DNA of 64,000 nucleotides from contig CAVQMO010000010.1 in NCBI GenBank assembly GCA_963713605.1, forward strand, positions 480,001-544,000, in the 5' to 3' direction. The stretch comes from an uncultured Nitrososphaerales archaeon (GTDB taxonomy: Archaea; Thermoproteota; Nitrososphaeria; Nitrososphaerales; Nitrososphaeraceae). The first letter of the stretch is position 1. Each line of letters opens with the position of its first letter. The translations under genes were made by a program, and so were the position numbers. This document shows, in pieces, positions 6,783 to 30,422 of this stretch. The notes beneath the pieces were generated by a model. The model saw nothing but the letters and a program-made list of their open reading frames with translations. It did not search any database and was not told the DNA's origin.

Positions 6783-8190
6783 ATGAAAGTGAGAACCATA
6801 AATCCGGCGACGGAAGAAATTCTTAGAGAATACGATATACCCGCTGAAGAACACATTCTGCGAATGACGAAGAAGGCTGAAGAAGCATTCAAAACAGAAT
6901 GGAGATTAGTAGGGAACAATAACGGGCACAGGAGAGCCGATTACATGTATGACTTTGCCACCCAATTAAGGAAGGAAAAGGAAAAACTCGCTACTATAGC
7001 TACCAATGAAATGGGTAAAGCGATTAAGGAGTCTAGGTCAGAGGTAGAAAAATGTGCTTGGGCGATAGAATATTTCGCAGATCATGGGGATATATTTACA
7101 ACGGATGAGGTTATTAATACAGATGCTAGGAAGAGTCTTTGTTACTTTTGAACCCTTGGGCGTTATCGCAAGCATTATGCCATGGAACTTTCCATACTGG
7201 CAGGCGCTGAGATTCGCAGCTCCCTCTCTTATGTCTGGCAATACGATTGTACTTAAGCCAGCAAGTGCCACGATGCAATGCGGAATAGAAATTGAGAGAA
7301 TTTTTAATGAAGTCGGATTGCCAAAGGGAGTATTTCAGACGGCAGTAGGCGATTCCAGGGTTGCAGAATACTTGATCGAGTCCGAGAGTACAAACGCCGT
7401 TACCTTCACAGGGAGTGTTCCTGTGGGTTCCAAAGTGGCACAAAGGGCTACAGCCCACCTGAAGAAGACAGTTCTGGAACTAGGAGGTAGTGACCCATTC
7501 ATAGTGTGTGAAGACGCTGACATAGAAAAAGCCTCTACTGGGGCAGTAAAGGGTCGCTTTATCAATTGTGGACAGAGTTGTATCGCCTCAAAGCGATTCA
7601 TAGTCGTCGATAAGGTTGCAGATGAGTTCGTCGAGATGTTTGTACAAAAAACAGAAAAACTAAGAGTTGGAGATCCATTGTCTGAGGATACAGATGTAGG
7701 ACCACTGGTTAATCCTTCAGGTCTAGAAGTCATAGAGGGAATGGTCAAGCGGGCCATCCGTCAAGGAGCAGAGTTGCTTGCCGGCGGAAAGAGATTGAAA
7801 AGTAAGGGGTATTATTACAGTCCAACAGTGCTTGGGAAAATACATCATGATATGGAAATCGCTCAGGAGGAATCCTTCGGGCCTGTCGCACCGATACTGA
7901 TTGCTGAAGACGAAAAAGCCGCTATTAAAATTGCAAATGATTCCAAATTTGGTCTTGGAGCAAGTATATGGACACAAAACTTGGATAAGGCTGAACGACT
8001 ATCTAGAATGGTAGAATCAGGGATCGTGACTGTTAACAATGTGGTGCTCTCTGATCCAAGGGTTCCATTTGGTGGGATTAAGAATAGTGGATTTGGACGT
8101 GAGCTATCAAAATATGGTATGCTTGAATTCGTAAATATAAAATCTGTGAGGTTCTACGACCAGCTTGCAAAGACTCATCATGTAGAATGA
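6783..8190 (+). CDS. NAD(P)-dependent aldehyde dehydrogenase (succinate-semialdehyde DH-like), +1 frameshift near 7138
   Basis: TINPAT, EMGK, PWNFP, FTGS, LELGGSDP, GQSC, EESFGP, PFGGIKNSGFGRE. Confidence 0.95.
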
Positions 8191-8567
8191 TAATTTTAAC
8201 TGTCTACAGGTCCGGATATCATTTGGAATACGCGTAGACCAAAACATCAACAATAAGTTTTTCCCTCCTATTTCCTCTTCAGGTTGAGGGTAATGAAAAG
8301 AGCAGTCACAGACTTTAGCATCGAGATATTCCACGTGATACTGATAGACTTAATGCAAACTAGTTTATTAGAAGTAAAACCAACTACTAAAAGATCTCCA
8401 CAACAAAGTGCGCTAAACATTACAGAAAAGTCCAACAATAATCATGAGTTAGATGCCTTACGAAATGGAAAGCGCGTGAACGAACAACGCAATAGCCTCT
8501 CTCATTCTAAGGAAATACAACAAGGTTTATCAGACTTGTGATTTAGAAATAGCTTTAGAAACAGGCG

Positions 8568-9011
8568 TTGAGTATCGATGAAATAGACTCCAAGATTTTG
8601 AAAAGAGTCCTGGTTGATGCAAGGCTTTCGTACAGGAAGATCGCCGAACAAATAGGAGTTTCAGCTCCGACTGTCCTTTCCAGGATAAACAAACTTCAGT
8701 ATCAACGAATAATAAAAGCTTACTCCGCAATTGTAGATCATGAAAAATTGGGCTACGATTTGACGGCGATAATAGAGGTAACTGCTCAGAAGGGAAAGAT
8801 CGTAGAAGTTGAGCGTGCGATGTCTAAATTTCCTAATGTATGTGCTGTTTATGACATAACAGGACTAACTGACATGGTAATTATAGCCAAATTCCGAAAC
8901 CGTAGAGAACTAAGCAACTTTGTCAAGAGAGATCTTGCTCTTCCTTCGATTGAAAGAACAAATAGTCACATGGTCCTCGTTACTGTGAAAGAGAATTTCA
9001 GTTTTTTCTAA
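8568..9011 (+). CDS. Lrp/AsnC family transcriptional regulator
   Basis: IDEIDSKIL..L..DARLSYRKIAEQIGVS HTH; YDITGLTD RAM domain. Confidence 0.95.
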   Translation: MSIDEIDSKILKRVLVDARLSYRKIAEQIGVSAPTVLSRINKLQYQRIIKAYSAIVDHEKLGYDLTAIIEVTAQKGKIVEVERAMSKFPNVCAVYDITGLTDMVIIAKFRNRRELSNFVKRDLALPSIERTNSHMVLVTVKENFSFF

Positions 9012-9388
9012 TTGAATAGAATCTGTTGCTAACACCGACTTGGAAGTAGTTTTCCGGCTCAAATAGGATTTGAATTTCGCGAAATCTGTCATGTACTATC
9101 TAGGTTTGTTTTGTAGAAAGAAATTTTAGTTTGTCAATCTAAGTCATATGTATTGAATCTATTGGTTATGTTCATAAGATGACCGGCATTTGAACGTTAG
9201 AAAGAAAGAATAACTGACAATTGAAATCCTCGAATCACCCTTTCCTTTCTGGCCACACCTCTCAATTATTGCGTTAATGAAGTCTCCTTCTTCAAACTGC
9301 GAACTTAGAAAATCACTTTGAGCTATTGAAATCGCAAATAGCGATAGCATCCAAAGAATAAAATTGAAAGGTGAGTAATAGAGCTCAG

Positions 9389-9506
9389 GCCGGGTACCCG
9401 AGCTAGGTAAGTCGTCGACCCTAAAAGGGGTCAGCCTCGAGATCTAAGGCTTACGTGTAAGCTGATGTCCGTCAAGGACTCGTGGGTTCGAGTCCCACTC
9501 CCGGCG
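9389..9506 (+). tRNA. tRNA-Ser(CGA) with two introns: 9410-9425 (position 21/22) and 9442-9459 (position 37/38)
   Basis: Acceptor GCCGGG/TCCCGGC with G73; anticodon stem TCAGC/GCTGA with CGA at 9438-9440; long variable arm GTCC/GGAC; T-arm GTGGG-TTCGAGT-CCCAC; BHB motif in the D-loop. The 5' acceptor strand is one base short. Confidence 0.9.
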
Positions 9507-9699
9507 CTACAGTCGTGGGTTGATACCGAAAATAAGAAAGAAACCAAAACAATTATTGCTGGGTTCAGTCCAATGGAGGTTAACTAGATTAGTGAGAGGT
9601 GATCTAAAGACCGTAGAGTCAAACCCATGCCCTCCTGACATCGGTACAAAATCTAGAGATGTCGAGACCTGCAGTCTGATATCTATAGTACAATACCAG

Positions 9700-10340
9700 T
9701 CAAACTATATCGCAACAGAATGAATATTCTTTTGTTAAAAAAATGGGGTTCCGAAGGTGTTGGCTTTGGTAAATTCGCACAACTATTAGCAATAGCAATA
9801 GATTATAATGATGATGTATATGTTACAGATACCACTAGTGTCTCCAACCAGATCCAGAAGTTTACCAACAACGGCACATTTATCACTTCATGGGATGTTT
9901 TAGGCATTAGAGATGGGGCTTTTACTAATGCTAGGGGAATAGGTGTAGATTCATCTAATGATGTGTATATTACAGGCGGTGGGAGCCCTAACCCTGCAGT
10001 TCAGAAGTTTACCAACAATGGTACTTCTATTGCTTCATGGGGATCCACGGGCTTGGGTAATGGCCAATTTATATCTCCAGGTTGGATAACCGTGGATTCT
10101 GGTGATAACGTATATGTTGGTGATTTCGGAGAAAATTACCGTATACAAAAGTTTGACAGCAATGGTACTTTTATATCGAAATAGGGAACACCAGGCACTG
10201 GTGACGGAGAATTCAATAGCCCTGCTGGTTTAGGAGCAGATTCTTCAGGAAATATATTAGTTGTTGATGAGGGTAACAATCGTATACAAAAGATCGTGGG
10301 AATAGCCGAATACAGGTATTTGCTCCCCAATGAATCATAA
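9700..10340 (+). pseudogene. NHL-repeat (6-bladed beta-propeller) protein with N-terminal frameshift and in-frame TAG at 10182-10184
   Basis: Repeats of KWG..G.G.GQF..P.GI.VDS..NVYV.D..N.RIQKF; the repeat continues in frame past the TAG (SK*GTPGTGDGEFNSPAGL). Confidence 0.85.
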
Positions 10341-10513
10341 AATTGTTTCAGCTTAAAAAATGAAAAATATATTATAGATACATTTTGAAGAAAGGCAAAA
10401 AGAAAAGATATAGCACCAAATATTAATCGCGTATCTATGGATCCATAAACCCGTAAAATCACGACAATCACTCTCTCCCGGTGCCTATCGTAATCCATTG
10501 ATTATATCGCTAA

Positions 10514-11071
10514 TTGACAGTCATTGATTTCATGCGCAAACACAAACTGATAGAACTTCGAACGATTATAGATGAAAGAATCGGATCGCTAACCGAAGAG
10601 GTGGAAATAGCAACTAACGTGAAATTGAATCCACTTTACATAGCTGACCGGCGGGATGAAATTGAATTTTTACGTTGGACTGCAACTGTTATCAACTCAA
10701 TCTTAACTCGCGATATTGACCGAAAACAAGTACAACTTGGAACAACTAAAATGCGATTACAGTTGTCAGATATTATCGAATTTGAAAATATATTACATAA
10801 CAGAATTGAAGAGCTAAATTTGAAGCTTAAAGAATCGAATAATCTTAGGGAATCAGATATTCTAATAAATGAGATCGATACGCTCGAATCTGTTCAGGGT
10901 CGTTTGGCCGATTTAAAGTATGGTGATAAAGCACGTGCCATAGAGATAGCAGAAGCTAATAATGATTTTCGTCAGTCGATCAGGTTGCGAAAGCAGCTAA
11001 ATAAAATACAAGATCTTGAAGATGAAATTAGCGCTCAATGTTCAAATACTAAATTAAGATGGACATCTTAA
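10514..11071 (+). CDS. Hypothetical helical protein
   Basis: 185-aa ORF with coiled-coil-like composition and an internal EIE.L/EIDTL repeat. Confidence 0.7.
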   Translation: MTVIDFMRKHKLIELRTIIDERIGSLTEEVEIATNVKLNPLYIADRRDEIEFLRWTATVINSILTRDIDRKQVQLGTTKMRLQLSDIIEFENILHNRIEELNLKLKESNNLRESDILINEIDTLESVQGRLADLKYGDKARAIEIAEANNDFRQSIRLRKQLNKIQDLEDEISAQCSNTKLRWTS

Positions 11072-11108
11072 TTGACAAATATCTTATGAGAAGATGTATA
11101 TCTTTTCT

Positions 11109-11345
11109 CTAAATACACTTCAGCAAGAAACTGCAGCTTTCACACGTATACACTAACTTATCGAAGCTCGAGCACAATTCCATGATGTCATTACAGCGCG
11201 GGCATTGGATCTCCATGTCTAGCTCAGACAACACCGGCTCTTCTTTTCGCTCTGGTACGCTAGATTCTTGTAGTGTTTCGAGAACCTGATTTTCGGGCTC
11301 CTGTTTTGGGGGAACGAGTTTAATATGGTTTTGTCTTGGCAACAA
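11109..11345 (-). CDS. Small Zn-ribbon protein
   Basis: CPRC...CESC. Confidence 0.75.
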   Translation of the reverse strand: MLPRQNHIKLVPPKQEPENQVLETLQESSVPERKEEPVLSELDMEIQCPRCNDIMELCSSFDKLVYTCESCSFLLKCI

Positions 11346-11539
11346 TAATAGTAATCAAATATGACTAATATATCCAAGCTGACTTTGAGGGGACGGACGG
11401 GGGAGCTAGATGAATTACAGATCCCCCACTCCCCGTCTATGAGTTACTACAGAGAATATTAACAATAAGTCAAAATAAGTTAACATAAGACAGCTTGGCG
11501 TGAATTATAAAAAATGATCATGGAAATGCTAAACAAACA

Positions 11540-11839
11540 ATGAGTTTATTTCCAGACGAAGACGTTCTTACTAGAGAAATAGAGACTTGGAGAGGCTTTA
11601 TAGATAAACTCCCTTCAGACGAAGATAAAGCCATTTTGACAAAGCTGCTAAATGACTGTTACAAGTATTCTGTCGCGATAAATATTCATGCACAAGAACA
11701 TCCATTTCCAACGGAGTCATTAATTATGTCGTTGTTGTTGTCTCAACACAAAATCATTATTCATTTAAAGTCTATGATACAATCTGAACAGATTAGTAAT
11801 AGACTAATTCACATTGGCACACAAGATGACGACGAATAG
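11540..11839 (+). CDS. Hypothetical protein (small family seen in Nitrososphaeraceae)
   Basis: ATG start with TATA-like TTATAAAA upstream; IETWRGF..L..EDK..L.KLL..CY pattern. Confidence 0.7.
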   Translation: MSLFPDEDVLTREIETWRGFIDKLPSDEDKAILTKLLNDCYKYSVAINIHAQEHPFPTESLIMSLLLSQHKIIIHLKSMIQSEQISNRLIHIGTQDDDE

Positions 11840-11981
11840 ACTTCAGGCAACCGCTACAAATTGTCAGATATCAGTTCATAGCAATTGAAACTATTTCGGC
11901 ATAGGCATATGTCCACACTAATGACTATCTCATTCTATACATTTCCAAAAAAAGAGATTATTGACTAGGTCAGCAAAATCT

Positions 11982-12293
11982 TCAGTTGGAAGCACTTTTC
12001 AATGTATTTCTAACTGCTTTAGACATATTTTTATGAGCTGCTCTGTTTAATTCTAGTGCTTCTTCTCCGTAGGCCTGCAGACCATATTGTGCGCCGTCAC
12101 TGCAGGTTATTTCTACAAATGAATATTCTAGCCCATTAGATAGACGTGATAAACTTACAGATATTTCGCTTAAAACGCACGAGCGGAGCAATTCATTCAG
12201 TGCTTCTACACTGTTGCTGTAGCCAACAGACGTAGGCGGTAGTGTTTCTTGAGCCAATATGTATAACGTATGTGGGGGGGAATAAATTAACAA
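11982..12293 (-). CDS. Hypothetical protein
   Basis: Protein-like ORF (YSFVEITCSDGAQYGLQAYGEEALEL); start uncertain. Confidence 0.6.
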   Translation of the reverse strand: MLIYSPPHTLYILAQETLPPTSVGYSNSVEALNELLRSCVLSEISVSLSRLSNGLEYSFVEITCSDGAQYGLQAYGEEALELNRAAHKNMSKAVRNTLKSASN

Positions 12294-13234
12294 TATTCAA
12301 AAACAGTTATGAAGAATCATGACGAGCTCTTACAAATCGATAGCGAGCTTTTTAATCAAAAAAGTCGGCTCCGGTATATCTCCAACTGCTAACTGCTGCA
12401 TCAAAAACAAATTCATATCCGCCTTGACAACAAATAGTAATGCTTGGATTATCATTCGGTAATATGATATTTGGCCGTTGTTTATTCTTATTTGATGAGT
12501 GTCGCTAATTCCAAACAAAATCAAATACTGCCCATCTACTCCGTCGAGTATACCATTCTCCGTAAATGTAGTAATGCCAGCGCCGCTACCAGCCACTCTT
12601 ATTACTGTTGCAATTGGATCTATCGGAATTTAAGATTCGTGAGAATGCAGCAGAGCATGCTGTTAAAGATCATATATACAAGGAAGATATCATGACGCCA
12701 GAAATGAAAGAAAAATAAAATAACATATCCGGAGTCATGAGTTGTAATTCCAACAACACATTGTAATCTAATCTCTACATAGCTCTTTGAAAGTTAGATT
12801 GACTTGAAGTCTGTCACTTGTATTATCTATTATAAATGGCCGAGAAATACCGAGAATAAATTCTTGTCAAGATCCAAAGCGAAAGTATTGATTTATGAGA
12901 TACGCAAACCCAATTAGAGCAAAAAATCCAGAAAGAGCCAACGTGAATTTAAGTAATTCTTTTTTCAATATCCATACTATGTTTTCACTTTGTTTTTAAG
13001 CGTATTTCATGTATCTTTTAGCAGAATTGATGGTCATTCAATTTTATACGATTGTACTGGATCATTTCAGTCTTATCTATATTTTCAGACCCATTCATGA
13101 TTATAATTTCATTTAACTCGTTTGTTTTTGAAATTCGCAGTACTATTAGATATCACTAGTACTAGTTCCGGTACTTTCTAATAGGTAGATGAATCAAATC
13201 ATCTAAAATCCAGCATCGTACTTGATCCACTGTA

Positions 13235-13426
13235 TTGCATTGGACCGAAAATTGTATTTGCAATGAGTGGAAAATAGAATTAATTAAGATAGATAATTCA
13301 AGAACTGAGCTTCGGTGTAGTATATGTCACGGTCTGATTGGTTGGTGGGATGAGCCGCAACGCATAAAGAAGATAATGCCATTCAAGCGAGCTTGGCCTG
13401 AAGAAGAATGTTTGGCCATGTGCTAG
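13235..13426 (+). CDS. Small Zn-ribbon-like 'HWTE' protein upstream of the peptide array
   Basis: H-x4-C-x-C...C-x2-C; paralogue at 29859-30065 conserves the protein sequence. Confidence 0.75.
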   Translation: MHWTENCICNEWKIELIKIDNSRTELRCSICHGLIGWWDEPQRIKKIMPFKRAWPEEECLAMC

Positions 13427-13439
13427 TTAAAATAGAAAA

Positions 13440-13452
13440 GATATCTGATTTA
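13440..13452 (+). promoter_or_regulatory. Imperfect palindrome GATATCTGATTTA upstream of peptide gene 1
   Basis: Same motif at the same distance (58-62 bp) before four paralogous genes. Confidence 0.6.
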
Positions 13453-13509
13453 AATGAGAGCCCGATTTTTCACAATGCAGATAAGAATGATTCTCTCGCT
13501 TGCTATTAA

Positions 13510-13752
13510 ATGAATACCAAATACATGGTTATTGTAGCAGCAATGGCAGTAATGCTAGTTGGTGCGACAGCTCTTGCAACGGAAGACGCATTTGCTGGGG
13601 GTAAGAAGAGAGAATACAATCAAGCGACATCTCAGGCCAACGCCTGTGGAAATGGTGAATTGCCATTGAACGTGTTCTGTCAAAACATTGGCTCACAAGT
13701 TCAAGGCGATGAAAACGCAGTAGCAGCCAGTGGCAGCCAAAGCACAGATTAA
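13510..13752 (+). CDS. Secreted Q/N-rich two-Cys peptide, copy 1
   Basis: Signal peptide ending AFA; NQATSQANACGNGELPLNVFCQNIGSQVQGDEN. Confidence 0.9.
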   Translation: MNTKYMVIVAAMAVMLVGATALATEDAFAGGKKREYNQATSQANACGNGELPLNVFCQNIGSQVQGDENAVAASGSQSTD

Positions 13753-13765
13753 AACAAATCAGCAT

Positions 13766-13779
13766 CTCTTTCTTTTTTT
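13766..13779 (+). terminator. T-rich archaeal terminator after peptide gene 1
   Basis: Pyrimidine/T tract directly after the stop; similar tracts follow copies 2, 3 and 5. Confidence 0.5.
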
Positions 13780-13815
13780 GTCGTCTGGCTGGTAACACTT
13801 AGATCTAATAGAAAA

Positions 13816-13828
13816 AATATCAGATTTA
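13816..13828 (+). promoter_or_regulatory. Imperfect palindrome AATATCAGATTTA upstream of peptide gene 2
   Basis: Identical to the motif at 30079-30091. Confidence 0.6.
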
Positions 13829-13889
13829 TGATATCGTCTCTCTACTTGCTTAATTTAGATAAACTTCACTCTCTCATTAGGCTATCAGT

Positions 13890-14151
13890 ATGAATACAAA
13901 GTATTTCGTAATTGTTGGAGCGATACCAGCTATGCTCATCGGAGCTACAGCATTTGCAACAACAGACAGTGCATTTGCCGGAGGCAAGAAAAAATATGAA
14001 AAAAATCAAGTGATCTCACAGACTAACGCTTGTGGAAATGATGAACTACCACTAAATATTGGATGTCAAAACATTGATCCCCAGATTCAAGGCGATGAAA
14101 ATCAAGTAGCTCTCAGCAGCAGATCAAGCATTCCCATCCATAGCGCCATAA
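13890..14151 (+). CDS. Secreted Q/N-rich two-Cys peptide, copy 2 (+1 frameshift near 14114; corrected C-terminus VALAADQAFPSIAP*)
   Basis: Same motif; the alternative frame restores AADQxFP as seen in copy 5. Confidence 0.85.
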
Positions 14152-14219
14152 CAGATAGCTCCACAACGTTCTTCTTTTGATCCTTTTGTTAGCTGTATTT
14201 TCCATATATTGATGGAACA

Positions 14220-14232
14220 TAAATCAGATTTA
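14220..14232 (+). promoter_or_regulatory. Perfect palindrome TAAATC-A-GATTTA upstream of peptide gene 3
   Basis: 6-1-6 inverted repeat, 59 bp before the ATG. Confidence 0.6.
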
Positions 14233-14290
14233 ATTTAGTGCTTGATCTTTCTTAAGATAGAAAAGTAATACGCCTATTACCATTGATAAT

Positions 14291-14524
14291 ATGAACACAA
14301 AATATTTCGTAATTGTTGCAGCAGTGGCGTTAATGTTAGTTGGTGCAACGGCACTCTCTACTACAGATAGCGCATTTGCTGATAAGAAATACGAGAAGAG
14401 TCAAGCTGCATCTCAAGTAAATGATTGTGGTAATGGTGAATTACCATTGAACGTCTTCTGTCAAAATCTATTATCTCAAATACAAGGTGATGGAAACGCA
14501 GCTAACATAATTGGAGTGCAATAA
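14291..14524 (+). CDS. Secreted Q/N-rich two-Cys peptide, copy 3
   Basis: Signal ending AFA; SQAASQVNDCGNGELPLNVFCQNLLSQIQGDGNAA. Confidence 0.9.
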   Translation: MNTKYFVIVAAVALMLVGATALSTTDSAFADKKYEKSQAASQVNDCGNGELPLNVFCQNLLSQIQGDGNAANIIGVQ

Positions 14525-14736
14525 CAAGCAGACCGGAAGCCGACTATCACCTTTTTTTTGATTTTGAACTTGATGTGAAATTATAGCGTCCTATGATTGA
14601 TGAGGTAATAATGACTAGTCTGAAATATCTAAGATTTTTTTGTTAAATATGATAGAATAGTTATATGACTACTGTATTCTATTGTTTTTTCTTAATTGAC
14701 ATTAACGCCAAGCAACATACTATCTGTTGACAGAGT

Positions 14737-15024
14737 ATGAATTATAATGCAATAGCTATAGCTATATTTGGACTGAGTATGATCCTAATAGCTTTGAATT
14801 CACCTATCTCTACCCATTTAGTGTTTGCAGGTGGTTATGAGAAGAGTCAAGTTATATCTCAAGTTAATGAATGCGGAAACTATTGGTTTCCAGTGAATAT
14901 AATATGCTCTAACTTAAACTCCCAGACCCAAGGTGAAGAAAATAATGTCGCAATAGCCACAACCCCAGAGAGCGGAAGCACAGATTCTAACTCCAACACA
15001 AATTACGGTACTCCATTTCCGTAG
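14737..15024 (+). CDS. Secreted Q/N-rich two-Cys peptide, divergent copy 4
   Basis: Signal ending VFA; SQVISQVNECGNYWFPVNIICSNLNSQTQGEEN plus S/T/N tail. Confidence 0.85.
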   Translation: MNYNAIAIAIFGLSMILIALNSPISTHLVFAGGYEKSQVISQVNECGNYWFPVNIICSNLNSQTQGEENNVAIATTPESGSTDSNSNTNYGTPFP

Positions 15025-15239
15025 AGCTTTATTGGCTAAAAAGCAACCCATAGAATACGATACTACTCCGCAACTTAGCACCATGGAAACTAAAGTCTCA
15101 TGTACTTAGAACTATAGCAGTGAATTAGGGGTTAATTTTCGTTCAATCGTAATCTGAAGAAATAGTATAGAGATTCACAAATTGTTACTATCTATGGAAT
15201 GTAGTAGTAATGAGTTTTCATTTCACTCAGCAATATCAG

Positions 15240-15425
15240 CTTCTAATAATGGTGTGTTTGTTGTCTGGGGAGAAGGTACTGACCCAAACTTCCATACAAA
15301 CATTCTTTTCAAGAGTAGCGCTACAGACTGGATCCATATTTGACCGAACAATAAGTCTCACTAACCATCAGGGTAATCCAGGCGTACAGTCAAACAGTCC
15401 AGCAATATCATCTTCTGCATCGTAG
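15240..15425 (+). pseudogene. Remnant of a BNR/sialidase-like repeat protein
   Basis: VFVVW..., FFSR...GSIF..TISLTN..GN...S..PAISSS fragments across frames. Confidence 0.4.
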
Positions 15426-15708
15426 TGCTCCAAATCTACCAATGACCGAGTAAGCGAGTAAACGAATAAATCGGACATTAAGAATGATTGAAGAGAAACA
15501 GAATGGACGCTGCATTTCTTGTAAAGATCATCTTGTTGTTCGCAGTGGACGACCAAGAAATTAATATAGTCTACCCATCGGTTGAATTTCATTATAAAAT
15601 AAATTACAAAATAGCAGCTAGTATCAGTCGGTAACAATAACCAATATGACTGTAACAAGTGATAACAGATCGAAAAAGCTTTGTAGCGCTCATTGCCAAT
15701 AGAATATA

Positions 15709-16032
15709 TTGCAAGTGGTATTAAACAAGCAAGAAAAAGAACATCTTGTGGTCAAGCTGTATCACGAAGGTAAGTCAATTCGGGAGATAGCACAGCAAGC
15801 GCATTTATCTTTTGGGACCATAGGCAAGATCGTTAGACGAATAAATAGCCAAGATGAAGATGAAACTGTACCGAATGATATGATTAATAAAAGCAAAGAA
15901 ACTCAGGCATTGAATCTCTTCTTGCAAGGTAAGCGCCCCGTCGACGTTGCTATAGAATTAGATCTCAGCAAGGTAGAGAATATATTACAAGAATTTTGGG
16001 TATTGAACAAGCTAGACGAACTTGCCAATTAG
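15709..16032 (+). pseudogene. Truncated double-HTH protein of a multicopy family
   Basis: LY.EGKSIREIAQQAHLSF..IGKI and ALNLF.QGKRPVDVAIELDL; ends abruptly. Confidence 0.65.
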
Positions 16033-16103
16033 AGTCGAATCCAATACTGAACAAGTCGACCGTGGAATCTCCAATAAGAACTAAATAGCCAGTTTAGATT
16101 TAA

Positions 16104-16376
16104 TTAGATCTCAAATTCTTTCACAGTATTTTCTGATATATTAAAATAAACTTGGTTCTCATCATAACGGTGAACCTTAGTTTTTGGAATCAAAAATACG
16201 TGTTCTTTTTTATTTTCACCATCTATTACAACAAGCTTATCTTTGTATTCCGCAAACACTCTTCCAATTTCTCTACCTTGGATGATATTTTTGTTAGTTT
16301 CATTATAGTTTATGATAGCAGAAGCTCTATGAGATGCATAATACTCTACTAATAAATCATCTCTATTATCTCTCAT
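16104..16376 (-). CDS. Small PRC-barrel-like protein, paralogue 1
   Basis: IGRVFAE..DKLVVID....VFLIPK..V..YD. Confidence 0.6.
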   Translation of the reverse strand: MRDNRDDLLVEYYASHRASAIINYNETNKNIIQGREIGRVFAEYKDKLVVIDGENKKEHVFLIPKTKVHRYDENQVYFNISENTVKEFEI

Positions 16377-16514
16377 TCCAAAAGTTATTCATAAAAGTAT
16401 ATAATCATTATATTTGGTTTATTTCAAATTCATAGACGGCAGTATAAGAAATATCAATAAATTAACATCTATGACTTTCCGGCCATATATCGAATAAAAT
16501 AGTGGTGTTGTCAA

Positions 16515-16895
16515 CTACATCTCAAATTCTTTCAGAGAATTTTCTGAGATGTTAATATCTACCCGCTTATCACCGTAATAATCGATACTTTTCTTGGGGA
16601 TCAAATATACATGAGCTTTCTTAAAAACATCATCAACTATTATTAGTCTATTTTTGGATTCTGCGATCACCGTTCCAATTTCTCTGTCTTTATTATGAGA
16701 CAAGAAAGCTGAAGCACTATAAAAAGTATAGTTTCCCAATGAATCACCAATACTGACTATATTGCTTTTCATAGTGAAACACTGGGAAATATCCATAAAA
16801 GTATATAACCGTTGGTAAGTTTCGTGCGCTTTTATAGAATAATTGATCTTTGGTGTAATCACGACAGCAATAAGAACAAAGCCGCTTTTAGACAA
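16515..16895 (-). CDS. Small PRC-barrel-like protein, paralogue 2 (true start probably near 16772)
   Basis: Clearly homologous to 16104-16376 (IGTVIAE...YLIPK...NISENSLKEFE). Confidence 0.6.
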   Translation of the reverse strand: MSKSGFVLIAVVITPKINYSIKAHETYQRLYTFMDISQCFTMKSNIVSIGDSLGNYTFYSASAFLSHNKDREIGTVIAESKNRLIIVDDVFKKAHVYLIPKKSIDYYGDKRVDINISENSLKEFEM

Positions 16896-17079
16896 ACTGC
16901 ATATGTAGTCTCAAGAGCATTTGTAGCCATGAGCATCTGAAATATCCATCAATCGCTAAAATAGATTCAGGATCTATCCACATTTCCAGAAACTATATCG
17001 AGCACTTTTAAGAGTAGACTTTTGTACCAGTGAGGGACATATGACCGCAAAATAACAGATAATAAAAACTGTAGCAATT

Positions 17080-17559
17080 CTAGGGAATTTGAAAAACATC
17101 TACTTTATCGATTGCAATTTCTTCCACTATTTCAGACCATTCGACACGATATATGTTATCTAATGCTCTAATATTCTGCAGGATTTGATGTAATTCCTGC
17201 GACGATTTGTAGCGTATCTGGGCACCCAAATTAATCTCTGGGCTGCCTATTCGCAATGATGCACTCACGATATTTTTGCTGTTTTCTTGCACGATATTGC
17301 TGGCAGTTGAATGCGGATCACCACCATTATTCATGCCGATCAAAAGATCAGCTATTCTCCAGCCAAATGTGCTAAGATCTATACTATACATCTTATTCAG
17401 GATGGATCTTTCTAGGGCGGCTCTTCTTCTTTGAACCGTTGATAGCGGAGCTTCTATCTTTTCTGAAATATGTTTACTTGATAAATGGGGGTCGTGAATT
17501 AACTCGTTTATGATACTCTTGTCTATTCTATCCATCGAAGCTCTGTTATTATTTTGCAC
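17080..17559 (-). CDS. Lrp/AsnC family regulator
   Basis: MDRIDKSIINEL..DP..SS..ISEK...PLSTVQRRR..LE HTH. Confidence 0.85.
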   Translation of the reverse strand: MQNNNRASMDRIDKSIINELIHDPHLSSKHISEKIEAPLSTVQRRRAALERSILNKMYSIDLSTFGWRIADLLIGMNNGGDPHSTASNIVQENSKNIVSASLRIGSPEINLGAQIRYKSSQELHQILQNIRALDNIYRVEWSEIVEEIAIDKVDVFQIP

Positions 17560-17973
17560 AAATTTCCCTTCGATGATAGATTGTACATCACGCCATAATA
17601 GGGGTTTGGGTAGAATGAGAGCATTTCTTGACTCTTCTAAGCATTTAGAGCATCTTATTTGAGTAAATTATCTACACTGATATGACAATTAACCGGCAGA
17701 ATAGCTAAACAGAGGTTACGGCGCAACTAAAATGCCATCGACAGTACCGTCAGCCCATCGAACAATATCACAATCACAGCTCATTGATTACAATCGGATA
17801 ACTGAAAAGTTAGCAGCCGCAAGCAGCGATGGCGAAGTTTAATGGCAAATGGATCGATATCTATTTCATAAGCATTAGAAGGCAACGGTATTCGATGTAA
17901 TCTCCAACCTTTAAATGGAAATATACACCATTAATTACCAACACTTATATACCCACCTAGATAGAGTAACGAC

Positions 17974-18610
17974 ATGTCAAAGAGAGAACAAGACAAAGTC
18001 TATCGAAGACACCAAAAAGGTCGCTGAACAAGCGAAAAGCGTAGAAGATAAACTCGATGCAGCCGTAGCATTGCAAGAAATTGGACAACGACAAGTGACA
18101 GCACAAGAATTTCAATCTACAATTGAACGTTCACTAGATGAAACAAAAAAGAATTTAAGAAAATCAATAGATGAAGCAAAAAGTCAAGTTCCACAATATG
18201 CAAACGTTGTTAAAAACTATGAAGAACAAGCACTCGAATCAACTGGAAAAATGGTCGAAGATTTTATCGAAACTCAAAAGACGGTAATGAATTCCATCTT
18301 TAGTTCTGCAACGCCATATTATGAGAATGTTAATAAAATGTACAATTATTGGTATTCTCCAAAAGTCTCAGCAGAGACATATATCAGATCTGTCAACAAT
18401 ATTGCTGAAAACCTCTCAGCATCAGTAAGAATAAGCAATGACATCTTATTTGGAAATATTGAAGCTTTTGGAAACGCATTCGAACGAGCACAACGACATA
18501 CAAAAGAGCTTTCAAGAATAAATGTGGATAATGCAAAAACCATCGCAAACACAGCAAGAGAAACTGCTGCAGAGTTATCAGTTAATAGACAAAGAGAAGT
18601 TTACACATAG
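17974..18610 (+). CDS. Helical hypothetical protein, phasin-like composition; +1 frameshift near 17995
   Basis: TATA box CTTATATA at 17944-17951, ATG at 17974 (MSKREQD) out of frame by one A; SLDETK.N..KSIDEA..Q.PQY pattern. Confidence 0.7.
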
Positions 18611-18697
18611 AACTGTCTGTCAGCTAGCCATCTAGTTAGATATAACTAGATGAATTAATTATTTTTGTTCTGTGCTCATCTAGGAACGCAACCCTGT

Positions 18698-19160
18698 TCA
18701 GTGCTCAAAATCTTGAACTTCCAAAGTATCAAAGTCTGTCCACATATTCATTCCAGTAGCAACAAAAACCTGAAAGTGAAGATGTGGCAGATATGTATAC
18801 CCGGTCATACCGACTCTCAGCTATTTCTTCACCTGCTCTGACATGTTGACCAGCTTTCACTCTTGAACTATTGTAGCTTAAATGATCGTATCTTGAGTAT
18901 TCTCCATTTGAGTGCATAATTACAATGAAGTTGGTATGACTCCAATAGATTGGGTTAGATCCCCCAGTATTAGAGTCATCTTTAACAAAAGTCACTAACC
19001 CGTCAGCTGCAGCAAGAACAGATGTCTCTTCGTCAGCTATAAAATCAATTGCGTTTCGAAGGTTGCCTTGGTGAGCAGGCGATGAACTTCTATCGATACG
19101 CTGTAACTGATCTCTCGATACCGGTAGTTTATATCTATTAATAGCATTTTTACTCATCAT
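18698..19160 (-). CDS. M23-family metallopeptidase, +1 frameshift near 18815
   Basis: H-x(6)-AID, VLAAADG.V, H.NGEYSRYDHL; second frame gives VGMTGY...PHLHF. Confidence 0.9.
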
Positions 19161-19443
19161 AGGTTTTGTTTCTTATTGAGATGTCATACTGTATAACTTT
19201 TAACGGTTTTATAACTCAATTCCACTCGAAGTATTGGTTGTTGATACCCTCAGCCCATATCCGTAAAATATAACAAAAAGCGGTTGTTGGGCGCCAACTT
19301 GATCGCTCATGGGGTTGAGATTGGATATTACCATTCAATAATAAGCAATATTGAATAAAAGTATTATAATAACGTTAGACATGGTTAGCCAACAAGCTCT
19401 TTAGAAATATTCTATATATATAAAAAATAGAACGTAGCCGACT

Positions 19444-19737
19444 TCACCAATGTCTGTTGCTGCCATCTTTATCAAGGTAATCGGCGATTTCATCAAATGA
19501 CAAACCCGAGTCATTCAGATCAATCATGAAAAAATCATCATGAAGGCCAGTTTTTGCTAAGGCGGCATGTACACTCATAGTTATATCAGAATTAGGGTTA
19601 CCATCCCAGCCGAAATAAGACAAGATGACACCCATCGCGCATCTTCCGTTAATTCCATCAGTGTATTGCTCTCTGATCTGTGTATACTGCTTACCATATG
19701 TACGCAGAATCTGAGAAGCAGTCAATTCATGTTTCAA
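19444..19737 (-). CDS. Hypothetical protein
   Basis: GRCAMGVILSYFGW...LNDSGLSFDEIADYL. Confidence 0.7.
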   Translation of the reverse strand: MKHELTASQILRTYGKQYTQIREQYTDGINGRCAMGVILSYFGWDGNPNSDITMSVHAALAKTGLHDDFFMIDLNDSGLSFDEIADYLDKDGSNRHW

Positions 19738-19820
19738 TAGTTGGTTGTAAACAACAAGCTATTTAGAGACTGCAGATATACTCTCTTCGTAAAATATAAC
19801 ATCTTCTCTGATACTAGTGG

Positions 19821-20012
19821 ATGAAAACAACATCTAATCAAGTTAAATACCTTGTTGACTTGCTTATAGCAATGGTTCTCGGAACTATAGTGTACGTAAT
19901 TCTAGTTATTATTGCCATAATCATTATAATATTACTGCTAAAGTTTCTATTTCAATTGTTCTTTGTAATACCTGTTGGAACAGACTATTCTACCGATCTT
20001 CTGTATGCTTAA
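19821..20012 (+). CDS. Small membrane protein
   Basis: Long hydrophobic stretch. Confidence 0.45.
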   Translation: MKTTSNQVKYLVDLLIAMVLGTIVYVILVIIAIIIIILLLKFLFQLFFVIPVGTDYSTDLLYA

Positions 20013-29512: not shown

Positions 29513-29716
29513 ATGTATGTAGATACAGGGAAAGAATACACGGTAGATATTACTGATAACGGTAGAGAGGGAGACGGTATCGCAAGAATAGAAGGTTTAA
29601 TAATCTTTGTAAAAGATGCAAAAGCCGGATACAAAAGCGTAAAGATTAAGATTAAATCTGCAAAAGATAATTTTGCTACTGCAGAAATAGCAGCAGGTTC
29701 AACAGATATGACATAG
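29513..29716 (+). CDS. Stand-alone TRAM domain protein
   Basis: V..GKEY.VDI.D.GREGDGIARIEG.IIFV..AK.G....IKI......FA.AEI. Confidence 0.85.
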   Translation: MYVDTGKEYTVDITDNGREGDGIARIEGLIIFVKDAKAGYKSVKIKIKSAKDNFATAEIAAGSTDMT

Positions 29717-29858: not shown

Positions 29859-30065
29859 TTGCATTGGACCGAAGACTGCATTTGTAGTCGGTGGATCACC
29901 AATTCCAAGACTTTAGAATTTTTCAAGATAAGTGATTCAAGAACGGAGCTTCGAAGCAGCAGATGTAAAGGTCTTATAGGCTGGTGGGACGAACCTCCAC
30001 GAATAAAAAAGATTATGCCATTCAAACGGAAGTGGTCGAAAGAAGAATGTTTGGCAATGCGCTAG
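29859..30065 (+). CDS. Small 'HWTE' protein, copy 2
   Basis: Paralogue of 13235-13426 (SRTELR, GLIGWWDEP.RIKKIMPFKR.W..EECLAM). Confidence 0.75.
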   Translation: MHWTEDCICSRWITNSKTLEFFKISDSRTELRSSRCKGLIGWWDEPPRIKKIMPFKRKWSKEECLAMR

Positions 30066-30152: not shown

Positions 30153-30422
30153 ATGAACTTCAAATATATCGCAATGTTCGCGATAATAGCAGCAACATTA
30201 GTGGGAACAACAGCAGTAACAGTAGATAGCGCTTTTGCCTACGAAAAGAATCAGGCTATCTCACAAGCCAACAGCTGTGGAAATGGTGAACTACCATTTA
30301 ATGTCGGATGTCAAAATATTGATTCTCAGATTCAAGGTGATGAGAACGGTGTATCACTAGCAGCCGACCAAACATTCCCAGCGATCCAAAACAACGAACC
30401 AGAACCAAAACCTGTGAAATAA
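30153..30422 (+). CDS. Secreted Q/N-rich two-Cys peptide, copy 5
   Basis: Signal ending AFA; YEKNQAISQANSCGNGELPFNVGCQNIDSQIQGDEN. Confidence 0.9.
   Translation: MNFKYIAMFAIIAATLVGTTAVTVDSAFAYEKNQAISQANSCGNGELPFNVGCQNIDSQIQGDENGVSLAADQTFPAIQNNEPEPKPVK

Follow-up and report, generated by a model that had tools for sequence, protein, structure and literature searches.

A large family of secreted-type, two-cysteine, Gln/Asn-rich peptides in Nitrososphaeraceae as candidate subunits of a cell-surface coat

The chaplins ChpA-H (PF03777) are short secreted peptides with two Cys residues that come from a multigene family, are accompanied by long multidomain forms and build an amyloid surface layer (PMC5618241). 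In the curli subunit CsgA and the Pseudomonas subunit FapC, conserved Asn/Gln networks stabilize stacks of imperfect repeats (PMC12822426), and among archaea the sheath proteins of Methanothrix and Methanospirillum build an amyloid-like envelope that is secreted, contains disulfides and carries cap or adhesin domains (PMC11576556); the main text of that survey mentions no Nitroso- or Thaumarch- taxa. Nitrosocosmicus has been described as having neither slp nor slaB, with a wall of about 18 nm and hairs of about 30 nm of unknown make-up (PMC11559005), and what replaces the surface layer (S-layer) in this genus is stated to be open by Nicol et al. (PMC6776761) and by Han et al. (PMC11559005). 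The envelope is believed to influence ammonia capture. Here we analyze an array of peptide genes in a 64,000-nucleotide stretch of DNA from an uncultured Nitrososphaerales archaeon (assembly GCA_963713605.1, contig CAVQMO010000010.1, positions 480,001 to 544,000), hereafter called the window, and report that the peptides belong to a large, selected and unannotated family with its own upstream motif and ordered, mixed arrays. These peptides are probably self-assembling, cross-beta (amyloid-like) subunits of a cell-surface coat in archaea with no detected S-layer gene, with a role in cargo display.

A sequence-only reading of the window had placed four adjacent, co-oriented peptide genes from position 13235 onward and a fifth at 30153. 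All five open reading frames (ORFs) were found on the same strand; the start at 13235 belongs to a separate ORF of 63 residues with four Cys, and the first peptide gene begins at 13510. The five genes are as follows.

13510..13752, plus strand: copy 1, subtype B; predicted signal peptide, then a Q/N-rich core with C-x10-C spacing
13890..14180, plus strand: copy 2, subtype A; intact core followed by a tail with an apparent frameshift near 14115
14291..14524, plus strand: copy 3, subtype C; the last conserved Gln of the core is the C-terminal end
14737..15024, plus strand: copy 4, subtype D; loop with the aromatic residues YWF, PFP at the C terminus
30153..30422, plus strand: copy 5, subtype A

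In the alignment, copies 2 to 5 share 38-72% identity with copy 1, and Q38, S41, Q42, N44, C46, G47, N48, P52, N54, C57, N59, Q63, Q65, G66 and N69 are invariant in all five. Because C46 and C57 are among these residues, the C-x10-C spacing of the core consensus given previously holds in every copy; the YEKxQ opening of that consensus does not fit copy 1, which reads REYNQ. Signal peptides, called by eye, have a short n-region and a hydrophobic stretch followed by AFA (copies 1, 2, 3 and 5) or VFA (copy 4), as the Sec-type signal ending in A/V-F-A had been described. None of the five peptides gave a Pfam or NCBIfam match. A T-rich terminator had also been assigned to each of copies 1 to 3, and likely ones follow two of them.

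13769..13779, plus strand: T-rich tract after copy 1, likely terminator
14552..14559, plus strand: T8 tract after copy 3, likely terminator

The T runs after copies 1, 3 and 5 are T7, T8 and T7, and the longest run beyond the called stop of copy 2 is T4. When the sequence of copy 2 was read against paralog C3:226113, another frame was found to hold a family-type tail with a stop at 14149-14151, so the apparent frameshift would account for the lack of a long T run after the called stop.

The likeness to chaplins and curli that had been proposed stands as an analogy of organization and fails as homology. Like chaplins, the peptides are short and multicopy, with two conserved Cys and a signal peptide (the latter by eye), and the NxCGN pentamer is common to both; chaplins are their best organizational analogue. 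The Cys spacing, however, is x17 in most of 32 chaplin domains versus x10 here, and chaplins are Val/Gly/Pro-rich products of 8 genes, whereas the present family is Q/N-rich with about 46 genes. The ChpA-C profile matched none of five full proteins and neither of two cores, with both controls matching at E ~1e-29; these controls were gathered by motif from metagenomes, and a viral scan gave two non-chaplin loci. In the profile comparison suggested earlier as a check, hhalign aligned only NxCGN with chaplin, over 9 columns and at a probability of 11%. Sortase-type C-terminal anchors were not seen in the long forms that were read, of which no systematic scan was made.

With FapC/FapB and CsgA/CsgB the family shares Asn/Gln-conserved imperfect repeats of similar size and flexible linkers (PMC12822426), as well as major and minor subunits and tandem repeats, and it differs in having mostly one repeat per gene, a probable internal disulfide and dispersed genes. 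Curlin_rpt (PF07012) had no match in the genome, while the E. coli control was positive, and a csg-type secretion operon was not recognized among the ORFs flanking the array, a genome-wide search not having been made. Fap systems have three FapC repeats per chain and a fap operon; the genes here are single-core and without a Pfam or NCBIfam match, although a Fap profile was not compared directly. The methanogen sheath proteins are 150-350 residues or longer with two six-stranded sheets (PMC11576556), unlike the present core of 45 residues, and membership in that group was rejected on core length and on the PDB search by sequence, whose two matches (E 1.1 and 1.5) are at chance level, none falling below E 1. 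The Nitrososphaera-type S-layer (slp plus anchor) is likewise exported, with slp among the most transcribed genes (rank 5), and differs in being one lattice protein of 1,200-1,400 residues that was not found in the peptide-expanded genera. A precursor of a ribosomally synthesized and posttranslationally modified peptide (RiPP), already judged less likely in the sequence-only reading, was also set aside: as that reading had stated, no modifying enzyme or transporter was recognized among the 68 ORFs of positions 8000-20000 (by eye; 8 of these were family-scanned, none such), and the core is conserved, not variable. The multicopy, tandem and fused organization fits a polymer subunit better.

A hidden Markov model (HMM) of the core, run as had been proposed to count copies, detected 46 ORFs at E<1e-3 in the 4.1-Mb genome, compared with a single match of E 0.5 among reversed ORFs. 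Signal and full core lie in a single frame with short tails in 34 of the 46 copies; the other 12 are broken, fused or nonstandard, and the broken copies, together with broken collagen-like genes, may reflect assembly indels rather than pseudogenes. Among 39 distinct cores, 4876, 4293 and 12273 differences were counted at codon positions 1, 2 and 3, respectively, and the median nucleotide identity was 72%. This third-position excess and the level of identity indicate that the 46 copies are old, selected paralogs under purifying selection.

Distribution was determined in 120 Nitrososphaeraceae genomes, whose genera are labelled here by g-numbers, g1 being the genus of the window. The core profile matched 13/13 genomes of g1 (3-59 matches each), 7/7 of g3 (6-26 each) and 1/1 of g8, plus one genome apiece in g5, g11, g12, g29 and g30. 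Among 16 genomes drawn from the order's other families, it matched none. Named carriers were Nitrososphaeraceae or Nitrososphaerales metagenome-assembled genomes or archaea of less precise name, and the family comprised 3507 clusters at 90% identity and 479 at 50% (the best 150 of the 479 listed). An ESM Atlas search with the peptide returned only unnamed Nitrososphaerota clusters, and no paper describing the family was found in the full-text literature searched, a scope that leaves out subscription papers. Nineteen sequencing runs shared 5-21% of words, which is not evidence of expression or habitat.

A 55-bp motif sits about 25-80 bases before the start codons. The motif matrix, built from 29 sites and applied with a cut-off of 18 bits, finds 39 sites, compared with none on the shuffled strand; 34 of the 39 precede family genes, 6 of these outside the training set, and two of the remaining five precede secreted-type collagen-like ORFs. 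In the window, copies 1 to 3 each have their own motif, as previously claimed, and so does copy 5; copy 4 has none over the cut-off.

13429..13483, plus strand: upstream motif of copy 1, 55.1 bits; likely promoter
13805..13859, plus strand: upstream motif of copy 2, 25.9 bits
14209..14263, plus strand: upstream motif of copy 3, 48.2 bits
30068..30122, plus strand: upstream motif of copy 5, 76.9 bits

When cores were assigned to subtypes A to D by rules of our own, the window array read B-A-C-D. No subtype occurs twice in any of the 33 distinct arrays from this genome and its relatives, each of which is a mixture of subtypes (a result reached by 0 of 20,000 shuffles), subtype D stands in the final position in 21 of the 22 arrays that hold it, and the same subtypes and arrays recur in congeners. 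Since orthologous arrays are not independent, this order demonstrates conserved cassettes and is not to be read as a probability.

Across 154 diverse cores, Q plus N account for 25.7% of residues and G/A/S for 28%, and both Cys are present in 154/154. Conserved positions mirror each other about the loop (C15/C26, N13/N28, Q11/small, variable/Q32, Q7/Q34 and S10/S31), and the mirrored part is followed by G35-D-x-N38, alternating hydrophobics and a final Q46. Two strands that face each other, with a Q/N zipper buried between them and a disulfide closing them, followed by an arc and a third strand, would be expected to give such a pattern. The core is doubled or tripled within one chain (P0261-P0263 and L243), and directly behind the signal peptide it serves as an N-terminal tag on cargo. 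Among 56 longer representatives scanned, 5 carry CARDB, NHL, VWA, CHRD or TSP3 over the Pfam cut-off, 2 have weak MG2 or SpaA_2 matches and 49 have no domain match. The window's own genome holds an Ig-like/BNR-like fusion of the core, and collagen-like repeats there are preceded by cores of a more distant type (E 3e-5 to 6e-4, in small locus sets).

Other features were noted around these fused forms. L256, L257, L258 and L261 (G000 C5, C12 and C10) encode collagen-like proteins of secreted type in which the N-terminal module is a degenerate two-Cys one; one of them ends in an NHL propeller, and two have the family motif upstream. By eye, similar-looking helical, Cys-bearing cargo occurs behind different N-terminal modules across genera (L288:1926-2636, P0295 and P0410). 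His-rich and Asn-rich spacers separate signal and core in g3 and g32 (L035, L037, L038 and L327-L330), and surface metal binding is a possible role for them.

Weak matches in g2 led to an 89-residue sister family of the same build, present in 14/14 g2 genomes with 4-48 matches each; its named members belong to Ca. Nitrosocosmicus franklandus, hydrocola and arcticus. Sister-family chains carry 2-10 repeats. Two Cys are present in 147 of the 156 repeats and three in 1; 8 lack Cys altogether, and none has a single Cys. The longest case, a 667-residue protein (L252:1388-3388), has ten tandem repeats, joined by short Gly linkers, plus an acidic tail. By a constant accession offset, four named sister proteins are NFRAN_0947, 1051, 1351 and 1352, all of which fall in cluster FAM004011_0 of Dreer et al. 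(PMC12448741). In N. franklandianus, the 28 genes of this cluster are reported to reach a summed 49,421 transcripts per million (TPM) in the biofilm state and 57,062 in the planktonic state, with the member NFRAN_2587 ranking 4th and the cluster's largest rise being a log2 fold change of 1.0 (PMC12448741). For comparison, the S-layer gene of N. viennensis, which ranks 5, has TPM values of 22,694 and 32,376; the sister family, at about 5% of TPM, lies above it. Because of this summed level relative to the S-layer gene, and because biofilm and planktonic values are similar, the sister family appears to be transcribed constitutively, like a main structural component. Of the two roles that had been offered, extracellular coat or biofilm fibre, the latter is weakened by the near equality of the two growth states.

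The Nitrososphaera-type S-layer gene and its anchor were located next to rad50 by synteny with the N. viennensis slp locus; the S-layer query gave a weak S-layer family match (E 4.9e-13, far under the cut-off) and no PDB match. The S-layer profile matched 8/13 genomes of g30, 1/1 of g4 and 1/14 of g5 (partial), and the anchor matched only in g30 (7/13) and g4 (1/1). No S-layer profile match was obtained in g1 (0/14, own genome included), g2 (0/14) or g3 (0/7), which belong to the 15 other genera sampled, all negative, and in the window's own genome, which is 87% complete, an unfiltered search gave a best E of 2.3. Five peptide queries had no real match in g30 or g4, the weak ones being off-frame or unrelated. 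Loose searches indicated that further genera possess N/Q-rich families of their own, multicopy and signal-bearing with two Cys, namely, g12 (9/13, up to 34 matches), g32 (10/11) and g29 (4/5), some matches in other genera covering mainly the signal region; sister-like repeats are present in g34, and a profile of three repeats had no match in any of 5 genomes from g12, g29, g32 and g33. The peptide family may take over the role of the S-layer, and a peptide coat is a candidate for the unexplained cell wall of soil ammonia-oxidizing Nitrososphaeraceae.

From these data we infer export, disulfide closure, cross-beta stacking and a place in the wall, in the following sequence. The peptides would be coexpressed from the common upstream element, a putative promoter, and exported by Sec with cleavage after A-x-A. 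The Cys15-Cys26 disulfide would then close, as paired conservation and paired loss of the Cys suggest, and each core would form one rung, in which strand 7-15 faces strand 26-34; the G-D/E-x-N arc comes next and leads into a third strand, which is hydrophobic. Subtypes A and B, the abundant ones, would copolymerize with the minor subtypes C and D, and core-tagged fusions incorporated with them would display NHL, VWA, CHRD, Ig-like, BNR-like and collagen-like domains. Judging by a weakly related family in another genus, the polymer would be made constitutively, as a layer of wall or hairs, and would not be a fibre induced in biofilm.

Several observations weigh against this coat reading. AlphaFold models are of low confidence: the monomer has a pLDDT (predicted local distance difference test) of 50 and is without secondary structure, and a three-repeat sister protein, modelled with hairpins at the Cys loops, has a pLDDT of 41. 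A membrane-anchored form was not recognized in the peptide family. All expression figures belong to the sister family in N. franklandianus, none to the genus of the window, and 4 of the 28 FAM004011_0 genes are tied to sequences here, membership of the other 24 being the clustering of Dreer et al. The sister and window families align by hhalign with a probability of 14-32% over 33-34 columns, both Cys aligned (3% in global mode); the score of 19.6 compares with a maximum of 17.7 in 40 column shuffles, and the link between the two is weak, no more than suggestive. The g29 family has no profile similarity to the window family, the sister family or chaplins. In g5, g6, g9, g10, g11 and g33, a full match to the S-layer profile was lacking, and so was any demonstrated expansion of the peptides (single candidates only), and since the S-layer profile missed 5/13 g30 genomes, divergent S-layers could escape it. 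One ancestral S-layer loss could explain the pattern, and the mutual exclusion of peptide and S-layer is therefore not a statistical test. Finally, Han et al. suggest that the hairs are a possible glycocalyx (PMC11559005).

In a rather unlikely alternative, the core is an attachment tag on a glycan or lipid wall or other scaffold and the short forms are abundant, nonpolymerizing decorations. The core does serve as an N-terminal tag on many cargo domains, and glycosyltransferases are numerous in the organisms whose wall is read as a possible glycocalyx (PMC11559005); yet 34/46 copies are free of cargo, with signal, core and short tails, and self-stacking would suit a chain of ten repeats with short linkers of Gly and with Q/N patterns of the inward type. 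Endospore appendages of Bacillus consist of disulfide-linked subunits joined by strand exchange and carry collagen-stalked tip proteins. By analogy, the peptides could form a nonamyloid filament of small disulfide-linked subunits with strand exchange and collagen-stalked tips, which we regard as unlikely. The invariant Cys pair, the major and minor subtypes in ordered arrays, the core-plus-collagen fusions and the hairs on Nitrosocosmicus cells (PMC11559005) would agree with such a filament, whereas a 45-residue core with 26% Q/N is small for a folded subunit, the PDB search gave nothing below E 1, and Cys can vanish in pairs.

A soluble role for the secreted products, as signals, archaeocins, RiPP precursors or peptides that bind metal or act in redox reactions, seems improbable. 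Their short, secreted-type, two-Cys build, the His-rich N-terminal extensions in g3 and g32 and the four-Cys ORF often found upstream would suit this role, but the conserved core with variable tails is the opposite of diversifying toxins, and the tandem and cargo-fused forms, the absence of a recognized modifying enzyme nearby and the share of about 5% of TPM reached by the sister family argue against it. An origin of the copies as artefacts of assembly, or as selfish or neutral repeats that a mobile element has spread, is very improbable. The copied unit does comprise the gene together with its motif and the end of the four-Cys ORF, and 12/46 copies are broken or nonstandard; this explanation is nevertheless largely refuted by the codon-position bias at a median identity of 72%, and subtypes and arrays are kept in congeners, within a family of 3507 protein clusters.

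The companion ORF that occupies position 13235 has a paralog ahead of copy 5.

13235..13426, plus strand: four-Cys ORF, 63 residues, TTG start; the stop codon adjoins the copy 1 motif
29859..30065, plus strand: four-Cys paralog, 68 residues; precedes copy 5

This family of small, Trp-rich, four-Cys ORFs has 15 matches at E<1e-4 in the genome, and in 6 cases the ORF ends 170-200 bases before a peptide core and its stop codon borders on the upstream motif. Neither Pfam nor NCBIfam gave a match, and ESM Atlas gave no family for it; the product is possibly a zinc-binding regulator copied along with the cassette. At G000:C3:113134 (minus strand), a motif of 72 bits and a four-Cys ORF precede an unrelated gene whose product is membrane- or signal-anchored, which looks like a capture of the cassette promoter. 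Elsewhere in the window, a short fragment at 15182-15343, just past the array, is by eye like the BNR-like repeat proteins of L259, and an NHL-repeat ORF lies upstream of the array at 9720-10184; both may be relics of cargo genes. An ORF at 18729-19160 weakly matches M23-type peptidoglycan endopeptidase families, here in archaeal DNA. The small ORF at 29513-29716, just ahead of the copy 5 cassette, presumably resembles a TRAM-domain protein.

A wider proposal is tentative, and we would sooner doubt than assert it: that most Nitrososphaeraceae lineages swapped the S-layer for a wall polymerized from dozens of short, disulfide-closed, cross-beta peptides, with genus-specific families and a module that also tags enzymes and adhesins, which would explain the thick wall and hairs of Nitrosocosmicus and make a peptide amyloid the primary envelope of some of the most common soil archaea. 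Candidate wall genes can be named in a cultured strain, namely, NFRAN_0947, 1051, 1351 and 1352 (by accession order) and NFRAN_2587 (by the clustering of Dreer et al.), and since the peptides are short enough to be synthesized, the envelope question is directly testable. If the coat reading is true, the known systems would gain an archaeal amyloid coat that is encoded by many genes and has cargo display built in, and several percent of unannotated transcription in soil nitrifiers would be explained.

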